Positions 2,250 to 7,770 of a stretch of DNA of 7,808 nucleotides are shown in pieces. The DNA comes from a virus. Taxonomy: Duplodnaviria > Heunggongvirae > Uroviricota > Caudoviricetes. Position 1 is the stretch's first letter. Each line of letters starts with the position of its first letter. The DNA lies in the IMG/VR virus record IMGVR_UViG_2648501165_000010. One strand, written 5' to 3'. A program made the translations under genes and the position numbers. Below the pieces are notes generated by a model that was given only the letters and a program-made list of their open reading frames with translations, had not been told where the DNA came from and did no database searches.

Positions 2250-2519
2250 TCATGCTTTCCACTTCAGGACACCCGAATTTCTCGCGTGCATTAAAAAACG
2301 AATCAGCAACAACAGCTGGCTGCCGTGTTTTTCTTCAAAATCTTTTACCCCGGCGTGCAGTTCGTTATGACATTTACGGCACAGCGGAATAACAAACAAA
2401 TCATCAGCCTTTGTTCCCATCCCTCCCAGTCCATGACCAATGATGTGATGCGGATCATCTGCCTGATTACCGCACGTCATGCATTTCTGCGTTTTTACCC
2501 AGCGCGTGTATACAGGCAT
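2250..2519 (-). CDS. Small Cys/His zinc-ribbon (HNH-like) protein, paralogous to the C-terminal module of the 2603-3505 gene; YbcO/DUF1364-like by recall
   Basis: MPVYTRWVKTQKCMTCGNQADDPHHIIGHGLGGMGTKADDLFVIPLCRKCHNELHAG... The open frame continues upstream to the gap at 2592 with homology to the ydfU-like internal region (VVSIAVDPESP versus VVSITVDPESP), so the true 5' end may lie in the gap. Confidence 0.5.
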   Translation of the reverse strand: MPVYTRWVKTQKCMTCGNQADDPHHIIGHGLGGMGTKADDLFVIPLCRKCHNELHAGVKDFEEKHGSQLLLLIRFLMHARNSGVLKWKA

Positions 2520-2592
2520 CTCTTCCCGTTGTGGTTTCTGGCGCTGGAGATACTGAGCCGGTGACTCCGGATCAACGGCAATGCTGACCACC

Positions 2593-2602
2593 NNNNNNNN
2601 NN
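2593..2602. other. Assembly gap (10 N) of unknown true length, between two paralogous zinc modules
   Basis: Run of n characters. The reading frame of the conserved domain changes across the gap. Confidence 0.95.
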
Positions 2603-3505
2603 TGCTTTTGTTCCCATTCCGCCCTGCCCGTGACCAATCAGATGATGCGGATCGTCGGCTGGCATACCGCAGCAAGCACACGGCTGTGTCTTAACCCAAC
2701 GTGTGTATTTCTCCTTAACCCAGCGGCGACGTTTAGGCAGCTTCATGAAAGATTCCGGAGACTCTGGATCAACGGTGATGCTTACCACCGTCTTTTCCTG
2801 TGGTGATTTTTGTTGCTGGTGGGCGTAAGGCAACGGTGCAAGATTTTTTGTGCGTTGTTTCAATATGCTGGTGGCGGTCTGCTCTCCCGGTACGATGTCG
2901 CTTTCGCGGTACACCGAGCAGATTTTTTCCGCTGGTAATCCCAGCGAACGACGCGATACAGCCTCAGGTAGTGCATCCACCACCTGATTGCAGACCGCCC
3001 ACCAGGATAATTCAGCCAAAGATAATTCCCGCTCCTGCGTACCGCTTATTGCGTGACGGATGACGTCAATCACCCATGCTGTCAGATTTTGTTGAGCAAG
3101 CAGCTCCAGTGATTCCGATGTCTGGTCACGCAGTTGGTTGTCGCAGTGCCAGCACAACACCATTGCGCCGGTACCATAACGGTGAATGACTGTTTCAGTG
3201 TGATGGTAATCGCCATTAGGCCACTGGCAGGATGTAACATGACGTAATAGCCAGTCGGACAATGCGCCAACGCCGCCAGCAGCACGAATCACCCGTTCGT
3301 TACTAAAAAACGGCAGCAATGTTTTGTCTTCCGCCAGCGGCTGGCGAACGGCAGGAACGACTCCGGATGGCAGATTACGCATGCTTTTTGGTTCCGGTTC
3401 CACCAGCACTCGAGGATTATGAAATATCTGTATGGATTCACGGCCCGGCTTAAGGACCACCAGCCCAAGCTCAGGCACCAGAACAGGTCTAAGTAATACC
3501 CGCAC
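2603..3505 (-). CDS. ydfU: YdfU-like DUF968 prophage protein, 3' end truncated by the gap
   Basis: Long open frame ending in ...WVKTQPCACCGMPADDPHHLIGHGQGGMGTKA at the gap. A GTG start at 3503-3505 with GGAGG just upstream would give about the 349-aa size I recall for K-12 YdfU. Alternative starts are GTG 3544 (track) and ATG 3385. Confidence 0.6.
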
Positions 3506-3506
3506 G

Positions 3507-3785
3507 TTACCTCCAGATCCGTTGCTGGAAAGTGCGGGACGCACGTGGTGGGCGTTCGGAATAAGGCAGCCTGACAGAGATTATCCAGTGCCGATAGTCG
3601 AGACTGAGAGCTTTCTTAACCTCGAACCCGCGCCTGCGGTAAGAATGAATCAGCCATTCGGCCTGTTCTGCAGTGCATGGAGGGTGCTGGAACCATTCAG
3701 ACTTGAATGCGTGAGAATACCGCCCGTGCGTGCAGGCAAGAACGGGCGAATTATCAGAATTGTAATATTTTGCGTTGCGTGCCAT
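3507..3785 (-). CDS. Hypothetical prophage protein (92 aa), no family recognised
   Basis: ATG with GGAG upstream; TAA stop one nucleotide before the proposed ydfU-like GTG; same orientation as its neighbours. Confidence 0.55.
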   Translation of the reverse strand: MARNAKYYNSDNSPVLACTHGRYSHAFKSEWFQHPPCTAEQAEWLIHSYRRRGFEVKKALSLDYRHWIISVRLPYSERPPRASRTFQQRIWR

Positions 3786-4319: not shown

Positions 4320-4475
4320 TTACTCCTCAGGTTCGTAAGCTGTGAAGACAGCGACCTCCGTCTGGCCGGTTCGGATTCGTACCTCGCAGAGGTCTTTCCT
4401 CGTTACCAGTGCCGTCACAATGACGGTTAAACAGATGACGATCAGAGCGATTAATATCGCCTTTTGCTGCTTCAT
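4320..4475 (-). CDS. hokD: Hok-family membrane toxin HokD (RelF), 51 aa
   Basis: Translation MKQQKAILIALIVICLTVIVTALVTRKDLCEVRIRTGQTEVAVFTAYEPEE with AGGAGAAG SD. The six-frame track misses it because it lists only the antisense ORF. Confidence 0.9.
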   Translation of the reverse strand: MKQQKAILIALIVICLTVIVTALVTRKDLCEVRIRTGQTEVAVFTAYEPEE

Positions 4476-4546
4476 AGCCTGCTTCTCCTGTCAACGCAAA
4501 GCAGAAGTGTCACCTTCGGTGCGAAACAGAGATGTCATGCTTTGGT

Positions 4547-4834
4547 TCAGAGAATGCGTTTGACCGCCTCGCTATATACTTCCGAGCGTTCTCTTTTCCC
4601 AACAGAAATCACGAAAACGACAACTTTCTCGTCTATAACCTGGTATACAAGGCGATAGCCTGAAGACCGGAGCTTAATCTTGTAACAATCAGGCATACCA
4701 CGGAGCTTGTTTGCTTCAATCCGGGGTGACTCAAGTACTTCAACCAGCTTCTTTTTCAACTGTTCACGTACCGTCGAGCCCAGCTTTCGCCATTCCTTTA
4801 GTGCCCGCTCGTCAAAATCCAGAAAATACGCCAT
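4547..4834 (-). CDS. relE: mRNA interferase toxin RelE (95 aa)
   Basis: MAYFLDFDERALKEWRKLG...VISVGKRERSEVYSEAVKRIL is essentially the K-12 RelE sequence by recall. The start overlaps the relB stop. Confidence 0.95.
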   Translation of the reverse strand: MAYFLDFDERALKEWRKLGSTVREQLKKKLVEVLESPRIEANKLRGMPDCYKIKLRSSGYRLVYQVIDEKVVVFVISVGKRERSEVYSEAVKRIL

Positions 4835-5073
4835 CAGAGTTCATCCAGCGTCACACGTACTGGCTTAGGATTACGAAGCCGTTCTTTCACTATCTCCACA
4901 AGTTCAGCATCTTCATCACTCAGGAGTGTCTGTTTGAACGGCAAGCGTTCATTGTCAGCGATATACTCGAGCATGAGACGAAGCGCTTCAGAAGGAGTTA
5001 CACCCATTTTTTCAAGCGCGGCGTAAGAACGCGCTTTAAGTTCATCGTCAATACGCAGGTTAATGCTACCCAT
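4834..5073 (-). CDS. relB: Antitoxin RelB (79 aa)
   Basis: MGSINLRIDDELKARSYA...RNPKPVRVTLDEL matches K-12 RelB by recall. Confidence 0.95.
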   Translation of the reverse strand: MGSINLRIDDELKARSYAALEKMGVTPSEALRLMLEYIADNERLPFKQTLLSDEDAELVEIVKERLRNPKPVRVTLDEL

Positions 5074-5084
5074 GTCTTACACCT

Positions 5085-5137
5085 CTTGTAATTACAAATG
5101 TCATTACAAGTATCGCACTACAACATGCTTAGGGCAA
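5085..5137 (-). promoter_or_regulatory. relBE promoter and relO-type palindromic operator
   Basis: Minus strand TTGCCC, 17-nt spacer, GATACT, followed by the near-palindrome CTTGTAATGACATTTGTAATTACAAG (5085-5110), AGAGGTG SD, and the relB ATG. Confidence 0.7.
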
Positions 5138-5403
5138 GTCACGAAGGAAGTCAGAAAGTAGTCGTAAGAACGGTGATCACTGTCCGCTTTGTGCCAGGAG
5201 CAGCCATTGCTAAGTCCATCCTGTATTGTGCAGGTCAGCTCGTTTTTAAAGAGTCCGGCCATCATCTTACTGGTACAGACACCATATACTTTGTGACGGT
5301 CAGGCTACATATGCACAACTCAACTTATTCATCTATTTTTTGCTTTAGCATGTCAGTGTTGCTTTCTCGTCGGCGGGTGAGCGGTGACCTGACCTGTCGA
5401 TAA
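5098..5403 (+). CDS. ydfV: YdfV-like ORF (101 aa), doubtful as a real gene
   Basis: Position and length match the ydfV ORF annotated in K-12 Qin as I recall it. The ATG lies inside the relO palindrome and has no SD. Confidence 0.3.
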   Translation: MSLQVSHYNMLRASHEGSQKVVVRTVITVRFVPGAAIAKSILYCAGQLVFKESGHHLTGTDTIYFVTVRLHMHNSTYSSIFCFSMSVLLSRRRVSGDLTCR

Positions 5404-5555
5404 AGGAACGTAACACGTTTTATGCAACACCCGCATGCGGCAGAAAATTATTGCCGAACGTTTACCCCTGTCAACAAGCTTTACTTTCTGAGGCGCGCCA
5501 GCCCGCGAGGAAAACAATCTGAACATCAAACAATTAATGACACAAGAAATACGAT

Positions 5556-5582
5556 TAAAGATTTTTTTGTGCATGCCGATAG
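5556..5582 (+). promoter_or_regulatory. Sigma-28 (FliA) class-3 flagellar promoter for flxA
   Basis: TAAAGATT, 11-nt spacer, GCCGATAG against the consensus TAAAGTTT-N11-GCCGATAA, 24 nt upstream of the flxA ATG. Confidence 0.7.
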
Positions 5583-5605
5583 TGCTTTTTTAAAAGGAGA
5601 AATCT

Positions 5606-5938
5606 ATGTCTGTCACAATTCAGGGAAATACCTCAACCGTTATTTCAAACAACTCCGCCCCGGAAGGAACATCAGAAATAGCCAAAATCACAAGACAAAT
5701 TCAGGTGCTGACTGAAAAGCTTGGGAAAATCTCATCGGAAGAGGGGATGACGACACAGCAGAAAAAAGAAATGGCTGCATTGGTACAGAAGCAAATTGAA
5801 AGCCTCTGGGCTCAACTGGAGCAGTTGTTAAGGCAGCAGGCAGAGAAAAAGAATGAAGACGCGACAGTTCAGCCTGATAAAAAAGAAGAGAAAAAAGACG
5901 ATACAAATACCGCTGGCACCATTGATATTTACGTCTAA
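5606..5938 (+). CDS. flxA: FlxA (110 aa), FliA-regulated prophage protein
   Basis: MSVTIQGNTSTVISNNSAPEG...TAGTIDIYV with AAGGAG SD matches K-12 FlxA by recall. The middle is coiled-coil-like and the tail is charged (KKEEKKDD). Confidence 0.9.
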   Translation: MSVTIQGNTSTVISNNSAPEGTSEIAKITRQIQVLTEKLGKISSEEGMTTQQKKEMAALVQKQIESLWAQLEQLLRQQAEKKNEDATVQPDKKEEKKDDTNTAGTIDIYV

Positions 5939-5952
5939 GTGACAGCCGTATT

Positions 5953-5977
5953 GTGGCCCTCATCGGGCCACTTTTCG
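5953..5977 (+). terminator. Intrinsic terminator after flxA
   Basis: GTGGCCC-TCATC-GGGCCAC followed by TTTTCG. Confidence 0.6.
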
Positions 5978-6254
5978 CCATCAGCCTTTTCTTTAAAGAC
6001 ATATTATCTTTGTATCATTTCTGATAGTTAACATTACAAGATATAAGTAATGGACGCACTCCCAATTAGTCTATTTAAATCGCCACGAGTTTAACTGACA
6101 ACCCATGATCAATTATGAATTGCAACTATTTCTGTAGTCACTTTTGTGGGGACAGTCCACAAAACTGCCAACTTCCGCTTCTTGCTCTTAGCGGACATTA
6201 GCATAGGCTATTTACCATAACGCCTCATTACGCGCACCGCCCAGACTGACTCAG

Positions 6255-6320
6255 CGCGTTTCTGGCATATCCCCGGTAAAACAAGTAACAAACCACCCGA
6301 AAATGAACACCAGAAACGCG
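6255..6320. repeat. 11-bp perfect inverted repeat (CGCGTTTCTGG / CCAGAAACGCG) separated by 44 bp, about 55 bp beyond the transposase stop
   Basis: Direct reading of 6255-6265 against 6310-6320. Confidence 0.6.
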
Positions 6321-6329
6321 ACTTAAGAA

Positions 6330-7770
6330 TCTACCCTATGAATGGATATGCACTCAACCGAATCGATCTTGGTTTCAATCTTTTTTATCGGGATCAGGCT
6401 TCTTTTTAGGTAACTTCGGGGGCTTAACTTGCTGATGACTTTGCGTTCGGCGCGTAAGCCAGGGATGGTCAGCTTTAGGTTTAACATAGTATTTTGAGCG
6501 TAAATCAATACGGGCATTATCCACTCGTTCATGGACACTCTTTTCATCATCCAGTGGTATAGGCTCCGGGCCATCAACATACTTTTCCCAGCCCGGCGCT
6601 TTCCCGTCATACAGAACGTTAATTTCACCGTCAAAGTTCTCGCATACAGTAACAACCGAATGCCTAAGTCGATATCCCCGGCCCTCACTGCGTACCTGAA
6701 ACGCACTGCTTTTGTACTGGAAAGTGAGATTTTTAGACAGAACGCGCTTCGCCTGTAGGCTGAAGATATAACCCAGTTCCTCTTCAGAATGGTGCACATC
6801 AAGATGAGCATTATCAGTAGTACGAGGCGACGTAGCGAACCGGTTGTTATAGGCTTCAATAAAGGTCGGCAACCATGCATTTGCTGTTTCAATATCACTG
6901 ATATTCTGAAGCCGCATTTCTTTGACCAGCCTGTCCTGTAGTGTCTGATTGGCGCGCTCTACCCGCCCTTTTGCCTGCGGGCTGTTGGCATGGATTGGCT
7001 CGATGCCCAGTGTCTTTATCGCACGAGTGAACTGGGTCAGCTCACCTTCCCGCTCTGGGTTATTTACCCTGAATATACTGTGTCTATCAGAGTAGAGAGC
7101 GAGCGGTACGCCATGATCATTAAGGTAACCCCGGAGGGTTTCCATGTAAGCCCGGGTTGTTTCAGCAGGCACAAAACGCAACGCCATCAACGCACTGGTG
7201 GCATCATCAATGAAAACGATCAGTGTACATCTGGGGCCTCGATTTTCAAACCAGTCATGAGGTGAGCCATCAATCTGGATCAGTTCACCGTAAGATGGTC
7301 GTCGCATGCGGCGTTGATATATACGGGCAATTTTACGACGGCGTTCACGCCATAACCCCTCTTCTATCATCCACTTTCTGAGAGTTTCAACGGATAAAGA
7401 TAAACCGTGTATCTCGCGCAATTTTTCGCACGCAAACGTAGGTCCAAAATCAGCGTAACGGCCTTTGAGGAGTGAAATTACTGTTGCTCTGAATTCAGTA
7501 GAAAAGGAATTATTAGGACGCTTTCCACGTCGGTGGGAAACCAGACCAGAAGGCCCTTCATTTCTATACCGTTGCACCAGACGTTTAACCTGCCGAATAG
7601 AAATGCCAATGCGTGCCGCAGCTTGTTCCTGAATAATCTGAAGTCGGTGGAGTTCCTTATGACTCATCGTAACAGTCTCTTTGATCATGAAAAATCCCCC
7701 AGAGAATTGTCTGGGGACATTTTAGAATGGTTCAAAGGGGACATTACAGCTTGGTGTTAACAATAGCCTG
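6330..7770 (-). mobile_element. IS-like element carrying the transposase; ends not resolved
   Basis: Transposase gene present, but no terminal inverted repeats could be matched between the left and right flanks inside the window. Confidence 0.25.
6375..7688 (-). CDS. DDE-type transposase/integrase (437 aa), N-terminal HTH plus rve-like core; IS481/ISNCY-like, family unresolved
   Basis: N-terminus IGISIRQVKRLVQRY looks like a helix-turn-helix. Candidate DDE residues are in QIDGSPHDW, LYSDRHSIF and SPQAKGRVERANQTL. The SD GGGGGA lies inside a 6-bp hairpin (CCCCAG/CTGGGG, 7697-7716). Confidence 0.85.
   Translation of the reverse strand: MIKETVTMSHKELHRLQIIQEQAAARIGISIRQVKRLVQRYRNEGPSGLVSHRRGKRPNNSFSTEFRATVISLLKGRYADFGPTFACEKLREIHGLSLSVETLRKWMIEEGLWRERRRKIARIYQRRMRRPSYGELIQIDGSPHDWFENRGPRCTLIVFIDDATSALMALRFVPAETTRAYMETLRGYLNDHGVPLALYSDRHSIFRVNNPEREGELTQFTRAIKTLGIEPIHANSPQAKGRVERANQTLQDRLVKEMRLQNISDIETANAWLPTFIEAYNNRFATSPRTTDNAHLDVHHSEEELGYIFSLQAKRVLSKNLTFQYKSSAFQVRSEGRGYRLRHSVVTVCENFDGEINVLYDGKAPGWEKYVDGPEPIPLDDEKSVHERVDNARIDLRSKYYVKPKADHPWLTRRTQSHQQVKPPKLPKKKPDPDKKD

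Follow-up and report, generated by a model that had tools for sequence, protein, structure and literature searches.

The gene at positions 5606 to 5938 of the window (throughout, the whole 7,808-nucleotide stretch of IMG/VR record IMGVR_UViG_2648501165_000010) is flxA, carried by an E. coli lambdoid prophage of the Qin type, and its transcription depends on the flagellar sigma factor FliA (sigma-28), as is established by data on the identical K-12 sequence. Judging from its distribution among relatives, the sigma-28 promoter goes back to the ancestor of all FlxA-like genes and no rewiring within the prophage is indicated; on the same comparison the E. coli gene belongs to a diverged mobile clade and retained this promoter. 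We give this reading, which covers the identity of flxA, its regulation by FliA and its origin and does not include its function, a probability of about 0.9. FliA-driven expression of flxA is a correct finding but not a new one, the exact promoter sequence included, since the identical K-12 sequence has published FliA dependence (the 1997 study, ChIP-seq, RNA-seq and in vitro data). What is added here is the conservation of the promoter across the family, the orthologues in the gltX-yfeR interval and the spread on mobile elements, which together provide a clearer frame for experiments.

The region is organised as a self-contained monocistronic cassette in the early-right region of the prophage, in which flxA with its strong ribosome-binding site is preceded by a sigma-28 promoter and followed by a hairpin terminator. 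The features of the cassette and its immediate surroundings are as follows.

4547-4834, minus strand: relE, forming a toxin-antitoxin pair with relB, within the mobile block
4834-5073, minus strand: relB, the partner of relE in the pair, within the mobile block
5098-5403, plus strand: ydfV, putative gene of 101 aa, an upstream ORF that travels with flxA
5556-5582, plus strand: sigma-28 (FliA) class 3 promoter, composed of -35 element, 11-nt spacer and -10 element
5556-5563, plus strand: -35 element TAAAGATT, read from the sequence
5575-5582, plus strand: -10 element GCCGATAG, read from the sequence
5594-5599, plus strand: Shine-Dalgarno sequence AAGGAG, 6 nt upstream of the ATG at 5606, read from the sequence
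5606-5938, plus strand: flxA coding sequence, 110 aa, 12.2 kDa, pI 5.0; an ORF matching PF14282 and identical to K-12 b1566
5953-5975, plus strand: intrinsic-terminator-like hairpin GTGGCCC/TCATC/GGGCCAC followed by TTTT, from folding
6375-7688, minus strand: intact ISNCY/ISEsa1-family transposase, 437 aa (NF033594, 455 bits), downstream of flxA

The earlier note, made from the letters alone, had claimed a near-consensus sigma-28 promoter, a strong Shine-Dalgarno sequence and a terminator around a gene that it named flxA, and each of these was found. The promoter agrees with the sigma-28 consensus TAAAGTTT-N11-GCCGATAA at 14 of 16 positions and has the canonical 11-nt distance between the -35 and -10 elements, as expected of a sigma-28 class 3 promoter. 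The degenerate pattern TAAAGWTT-N10-12-GCCGATAR matched the window only once, at 5556-5582, and was absent from all dinucleotide-preserving shuffles of the window (0/200). Counting agreement with the consensus over the window revealed, besides the flxA promoter, one more site with 14/16 and one with 13/16 positions, so that the motif by itself is not unique in the window; the distinguishing trait of the flxA promoter is its placement 23 nt upstream of a start codon that is preceded by a strong ribosome-binding site. The other 14/16 site, TAAAGTTC-N11-ACCGATAA at 63-89 on the plus strand, lies within the opposite-strand TerB-family gene at the start of the window, and no correctly oriented gene is evident downstream of it in the window. 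Many intragenic FliA sites have been reported for K-12, and the site at 63-89 resembles those. The spacer between ydfV and flxA also holds a near-consensus sigma-70-type promoter on the minus strand (5447-5474, TTGACA-16-AATAAT, 11/12), which is directed away from flxA, antisense to ydfV and toward relBE; a simple scan for sigma-70 promoters and terminators gave nothing further on the plus strand.

The identity of the gene was borne out by the Pfam family PF14282 (FlxA), whose gathering threshold is exceeded by the protein (53.8 bits against a cut-off of 26.3, 2.3e-14) and whose profile positions 2-96 out of 101 are covered by residues 7-101. Downstream of the stop codon the hairpin GTGGCCC-TCATC-GGGCCAC occupies 5953-5971 and the TTTT run 5972-5975; the calculated folding energy was -18.1 kcal/mol (z = -2.6). 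The simple terminator scanner did not call this structure because its T-run contains only 4 T, and the element is a modest intrinsic terminator.

The published K-12 data can be applied to the window directly because the sequences are the same. Positions 4456-6559 are 100% identical to the Qin prophage of E. coli K-12 MG1655, which includes the promoter, flxA and the terminator, and not a single base differs in the interval 5404-5990; the correspondence with K-12 flxA (b1566) is thus base for base over promoter, ribosome-binding site, coding sequence and terminator. Fitzgerald et al. (2014) reported the identical 28-mer TAAAGATTTTTTTGTGCATGCCGATAGT as a FliA ChIP-seq site with a FAT score of 16, and counted flxA among the "well-characterized FliA-dependent promoters" (PMC4183435). 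In the same work the flxA RNA level fell from 280 in motile MG1655 to 2 when fliA was deleted (PMC4183435), and the arrays of Zhao et al. (2007) showed flxA to be 28.4-fold down in a fliA deletion and 8.2-fold up on FliA induction (PMC1935009). The expression check in fliA mutants that had been proposed for this gene is thus already published for K-12, with FliA dependence as its outcome. In vitro, the sigma-28 holoenzyme selected the ydfV-flxA spacer in the gSELEX experiments of Shimada et al. (2017) with an intensity of 23.2 (PMC5493296), and published co-expression of flxA with flagellar genes was found as well. Ide and Kutsukake (1997, Gene 199:19) named the gene flxA, and the title of their paper describes its expression as FliA-dependent and calls the gene dispensable for the development of motility. 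Nothing that speaks against FliA regulation of flxA was found. Expression together with the late flagellar genes, as the earlier note proposed, is therefore upheld by binding and expression data, and flxA is among the most strongly FliA-dependent genes of E. coli.

From these data the course of flxA expression would be the following. RNA polymerase carrying FliA would bind the -35 and -10 elements at 5556-5582, as shown for the identical K-12 sequence, and transcription would start a few bases downstream of the promoter, at about 5589-5591. Because of the published FliA dependence, flxA would be expected to be made alongside the class 3 flagellar genes, and not before completion of the hook-basal body and export of FlgM.

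The idea that a prophage gene had been wired to a host sigma factor was upheld only in part: the FliA promoter is present, but it is not a phage innovation, since chromosomal copies outside prophages share it. An exhaustive HMMER search with FlxA returned only 48 cluster representatives at E ≤ 0.001, and these included full-length proteins 30-45% identical to FlxA. The Pantoea gene is situated between gltX and a LysR gene, near ligA and zipA, with phage genes absent from the vicinity. The Pantoea, conjugative-element and Enterobacter copies carry the sigma-28 motif 23-30 nt upstream of the start codon, and in each locus it is the sole site with at least 13/16 matching positions. To widen the comparison, 80 genome loci were fetched from Pantoea, Erwinia, Winslowiella, Enterobacter, Cedecea, Scandinavium, Citrobacter, Siccibacter, Leclercia and Acerihabitans, and 78 of them were usable after the start codons had been re-derived. 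The motif T(C/A)AAG...-N11/12-(G)CCGATA(A/C), scoring at least 11/16, was detected in all but one of the 78 loci (77/78), ending 26-34 nt upstream of the start; in three loci the distance is 29 nt when counted from the true start rather than from an internal Met. A score of at least 12/16 was reached in 70/78 loci versus 31/1840 random 120-nt control windows taken from the same loci.

The position of these genes is conserved too. For 73-75 of the 78 loci, clustering of the flanking ORFs together with Pfam annotation gave the order yfeC-gltX-(xapR-xapB-xapA in Enterobacter)-flxA-like-yfeR(LysR)-yfeH(SBF-like)-ligA, and this synteny therefore argues for vertical inheritance at a housekeeping locus. 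The slot between gltX (or xapA) and yfeR that holds the FlxA-like gene is seen in many Enterobacterales, for example at 2929-3267 of locus L058, and the gene converges on the LysR gene, the 3' ends frequently overlapping. Among the 5426 complete E. coli genomes, only one (strain ST95-32) contained a chromosomal-type flxA at the sensitivity of blastn. The chromosomal FlxA-like proteins of Pantoea, Erwinia, Enterobacter, Cedecea, Scandinavium and Citrobacter belong to PF14282 and have the same architecture as E. coli FlxA, i.e., a Ser/Thr/Gly-rich N-terminus, a Gln-rich hairpin and a C-terminal ...D(V/I)Y(V/I) motif, and their genes have the same type of sigma-28 promoter at 26-34 nt from the start. 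They differ from the E. coli copy in an extra conserved ADG(V/I)NRPTD segment that E. coli FlxA lacks, in a -35 element that is mostly TCAAG instead of TAAAG, and in their setting in non-mobile DNA, where they are convergent with yfeR and have no terminator of their own. The mobile and chromosomal clades share only about 25-45% protein identity.

The most economical reading would be that a host flagellar-regulon gene was captured, together with its own promoter, by mobile DNA. The capturing elements would be Qin-type prophages, plasmids of IncI and other types, a conjugative element with TraI and an island near icd that carries an integrase. Distribution and synteny, rather than a rooted tree, point to transfer in the direction from the chromosome to the mobile elements. 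A copy of FlxA with 64% identity adjoins traI on the conjugative element, and one with 85% identity adjoins icd in Enterobacter, where a phage-type integrase is found nearby on shorter contigs encoding the same protein; both the conjugative-element and the integrase-island copies retained the sigma-28 promoter. When the Qin copy was aligned with these two, the unit common to all consisted of the promoter, the ribosome-binding site and the ORF. The homology with the conjugative-element and Enterobacter-island copies stops near the stop codon of flxA, and the terminator therefore belongs to the Qin context.

A conjugative IncI plasmid of Salmonella Brandenburg (NZ_CP030003.1) has a segment with 98.4% identity to the block 4431-7764, which comprises the ISEsa1-family element and relE, relB, ydfV and flxA. 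FlxA was detected on 32 plasmids from Citrobacter, Enterobacter, Escherichia, Salmonella and Edwardsiella, and copies at least 97% identical are present on Enterobacter, Edwardsiella and E. coli plasmids. Of the 80 flxA-bearing contigs in IMG/VR, most have the arrangement relBE-ydfV-flxA-IS, 78 kept the sigma-28 promoter and 66 have the exact 27-mer. The cassette is also carried by one deposited phage genome record, the 48.7-kb PhiR42_1 from ECOR13. Going by these comparisons, the block 4431-7764 seems to be passed on as a whole between prophages and plasmids, and the IS element is possibly the vehicle of this movement. The putative gene ydfV accompanies flxA in every prophage and plasmid copy; Pfam, PHROGs, NCBIfam and PADLOC gave no match for it.

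What remains of interest is the function of this conserved and mobile small protein. The remark in the earlier note that the function is unknown is still accurate, as flxA was listed among the uncharacterized Qin genes in 2024 (PMC11551758), whereas its suggestion of an effect on motility had already been addressed by the 1997 title quoted above. The description of the protein as having a coiled-coil-like centre and an acidic/lysine-rich tail proved apt. The AlphaFold2 model contains a disordered stretch over residues 1-19 (to about 20; pLDDT < 50), helices at 20-44 and 50-85 that form an antiparallel hairpin (pLDDT 86-96), and a disordered K/E/D-rich C-terminal tail ending in IDIYV; a second run with an alignment of 18 sequences left the tails disordered. 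Throughout the family the protein starts with M(S/T)(S/T)I, followed by about 20 residues that vary in sequence, and residues 2-20 consist of 34% Ser, 15% Thr, 15% Gly and 9% Ile. Positions 2-18 are free of any charged residue in 59 of 81 family members. The core of the family is a hairpin rich in Gln, Leu, Ala, Lys and Glu, and the C-terminus is composed of a disordered linker and a near-invariant (I/L/V)(D/N)(I/V)Y(V/I). The dN/dS values were 0.10-0.24 in pairs taken from the mobile clade as well as from the chromosomal one, and FlxA is therefore under purifying selection.

Searches by fold and profile brought up no related solved structure or known family other than generic coiled coils. 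Foldseek comparison of the FlxA model with the PDB returned generic helical hairpins only, none at E ≤ 0.001, with a heterodimer designed de novo as the best match. When PDB sequences were searched by profile, all matches were coiled-coil proteins, among them designed antiparallel ones. The FliJ-like CdsO was considered as a fold relative and rejected, its Foldseek E-value of 1.1 being not significant. No likeness to FlgN, FliS, FliT, FliJ or FlgM was detected by profile or fold search, and FlxA had no matches in NCBIfam. In the PHROGs collection FlxA falls in PHROG 11044, a family without assigned function. Two giant proteins of 3361 and 2729 aa that matched FlxA residues 8-50 repeatedly were set aside as compositional matches because they are Ig-repeat surface proteins.

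We tentatively propose, at somewhat less than even odds, that FlxA is exported as a late substrate through the completed flagellar type III apparatus. The disordered, uncharged N-terminus rich in Ser, Thr, Gly and Ile would act as the export signal, and the conserved tail (I/L/V)(D/N)(I/V)Y(V/I) would dock a chaperone or a target. The proposal has a circumstantial basis, namely the class 3-only expression, the lack of a Sec signal and an N-terminal disorder and composition typical of type III signals; as these signals have no strict consensus, the composition of the FlxA N-terminus is only compatible with export. It is further based on the rise of FlxA in culture filtrates together with export substrates and on discordant protein and mRNA levels at 42°C. 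In co-cultures of E. coli DH5alpha, 5 FlxA peptides were found in the 0.22-um cell-free filtrate, where the protein rose together with the flagellar export substrates FlgK, FliD, FliC, FlgL, FlgM and FlgE (PMC6391000). However, the same filtrate contained cytoplasmic proteins, e.g., CheY and isocitrate lyase (PMC6391000), and because of these, lysis combined with induction of the regulon could account for the FlxA in the filtrate. At 42°C, under a general failure of flagellar export, the flxA protein and mRNA were reported to shift in opposite directions (PMC6551532); the paper does not state the direction, and we infer that the mRNA goes down and the protein up. The searchable literature yielded no direct FlxA secretion experiment.

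For such export FlgM, the anti-sigma-28 factor and an exported class 3 product, would by analogy be the model, FlxA export itself being hypothetical. The two proteins are both small (about 100 aa), have sigma-28 promoters and disordered N-termini, lack a Sec signal and occurred in the same cell-free filtrate. No similarity in sequence or fold was detected between them, and FlgM is largely disordered, whereas FlxA has a confidently predicted helical hairpin. If FlxA is exported, it would be a rare enterobacterial case of non-structural cargo of the flagellar export apparatus carried by mobile DNA. An extended form of the proposal, which we regard as possible and hold with still less assurance, is that the FlxA-like proteins constitute an unrecognised conserved class in Enterobacterales, exported late by the flagellar type III route, and that their genes, along with the sigma-28 promoter, were repeatedly captured by prophages, plasmids and conjugative elements. 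If this is true, FlxA-like proteins are non-structural cargo released via the flagellum, and the E. coli flagellum secretes a protein encoded by a mobile element.

Alternatively, FlxA could stay in the cytoplasm and act on the late flagellar or chemotaxis programme as a small coiled-coil protein, either an adaptor or a regulator, for instance by binding to an export chaperone, to FliA/FlgM, to the motor or to a c-di-GMP component; we consider this a serious contender, although one that we would sooner doubt than accept. The high-confidence prediction of a helical-hairpin core, the strictly class 3 expression and the conserved C-terminal peptide, which could dock a cytoplasmic partner, are all consistent with it. 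Other orphan class 3 genes (ycgR and pdeH) turned out to encode cytoplasmic adaptors or regulators. FlxA has also been detected in whole-cell proteomes (PMC6551532). Such a role would leave unexplained both the long N-terminus, which is constrained in composition yet variable in sequence, and the co-occurrence with export substrates in the cell-free filtrate; moreover, the absence of similarity to the flagellar chaperones and regulators searched for and of a motility phenotype, as given in the 1997 title, speaks against it.

We find it improbable that FlxA primarily serves the phage or plasmid, as cargo that protects the flagellated lysogen, e.g., against flagellotropic phages, or benefits the element otherwise. 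In E. coli, flxA is essentially limited to Qin-type prophages, PhiR42_1 and plasmids, it adjoins the addiction modules relBE and hokD, and the timing of its expression fits the exposure of flagella as a phage receptor. However, about 10 genera have homologues with the same promoter at a conserved site of the chromosome outside mobile DNA, which argues that the ancestral role of FlxA is a host role, and neither FlxA nor YdfV matched a PADLOC defence model at E up to 0.01; the lack of an assigned function for the PHROG family gives such a role no support either. Finally, the possibility that flxA is a decaying passenger, transcribed without function in a cryptic prophage, would agree with the defective state of Qin, with a gene still uncharacterized and with the lack of a loss-of-function phenotype in the original study, as far as its title tells, but is very improbable and already largely refuted by the purifying selection in both clades, the conserved promoter spacing across genera, the detection of the protein by mass spectrometry and the presence of the flxA region at 99% identity or more, with intact ORF, promoter and ribosome-binding site, in 1204 of the 5426 complete E. 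coli genomes. Incidental mentions of flxA in phenotypic studies (a hipA-flxA deletion in isobutanol tolerance, depletion with neomycin in a transposon screen and an overexpression screen for oxidant resistance) give no pointer to function.

With respect to its surroundings, flxA has the features of a prophage moron. A promoter and a terminator of its own, the latter modest, enclose a single ORF. In the Qin relatives ATCC 8739 and K-12 the gene has Q-rusA-ydfU to one side and the dicC/dicA immunity region to the other, and the genes for the Q antiterminator and RusA are present in the window as well. Like the lambdoid morons bor and lom of lambda, flxA is an independent unit expressed in the prophage state and inserted between phage modules, with a GC content of 43% compared with 48% for the window. 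Unlike them, it needs an alternative host sigma factor instead of sigma-70, and it also moves on plasmids within the relBE-ydfV-flxA-IS block.

The gene order in the window is TerB-family gene, tRNAs, Q antiterminator, RusA, DUF968/ydfU, rem, hokD, relE, relB, ydfV, flxA and transposase, and hokD, relE and relB were matched to Pfam families. The neighbouring relBE and ydfV are the same as in K-12 Qin, whereas the upstream region with Q, rusA and the tRNAs is unlike its K-12 counterpart. Runs of N are present at 578-652, 780-789, 1011-1020 and 2593-2602. ARAGORN predicted a tRNA-Arg(tct) at 816-890 and a tRNA-Lys(ttt) at 904-979, both on the minus strand, and relatives of this stretch, retrieved with positions 1-570 of the window as the query, have a tRNA-Ile annotated, 578-652 being masked here. 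The N-run at 2593-2602 lies at the junction of two DUF968/ydfU-like C-terminal segments (ORFs 2250-2681 and 2495-3544), and the identity to K-12 starts at 2603, right after it. The arrangement suggests that this junction may be a recombination joint. On the other side of flxA the identity to K-12 stops at 6559, within the ISEsa1-family element, which is intact in the window and truncated in K-12, where its remnant contains the small ORFs ydfW and ydfX; no terminal inverted repeats were detected for this element with the repeat tool. A 25-bp unit, ATTTCTGATAGTTAACATTACAAGA, follows the flxA terminator at 6017-6041 as a single copy in the window and as two tandem copies in E. coli ATCC 8739 and other strains.
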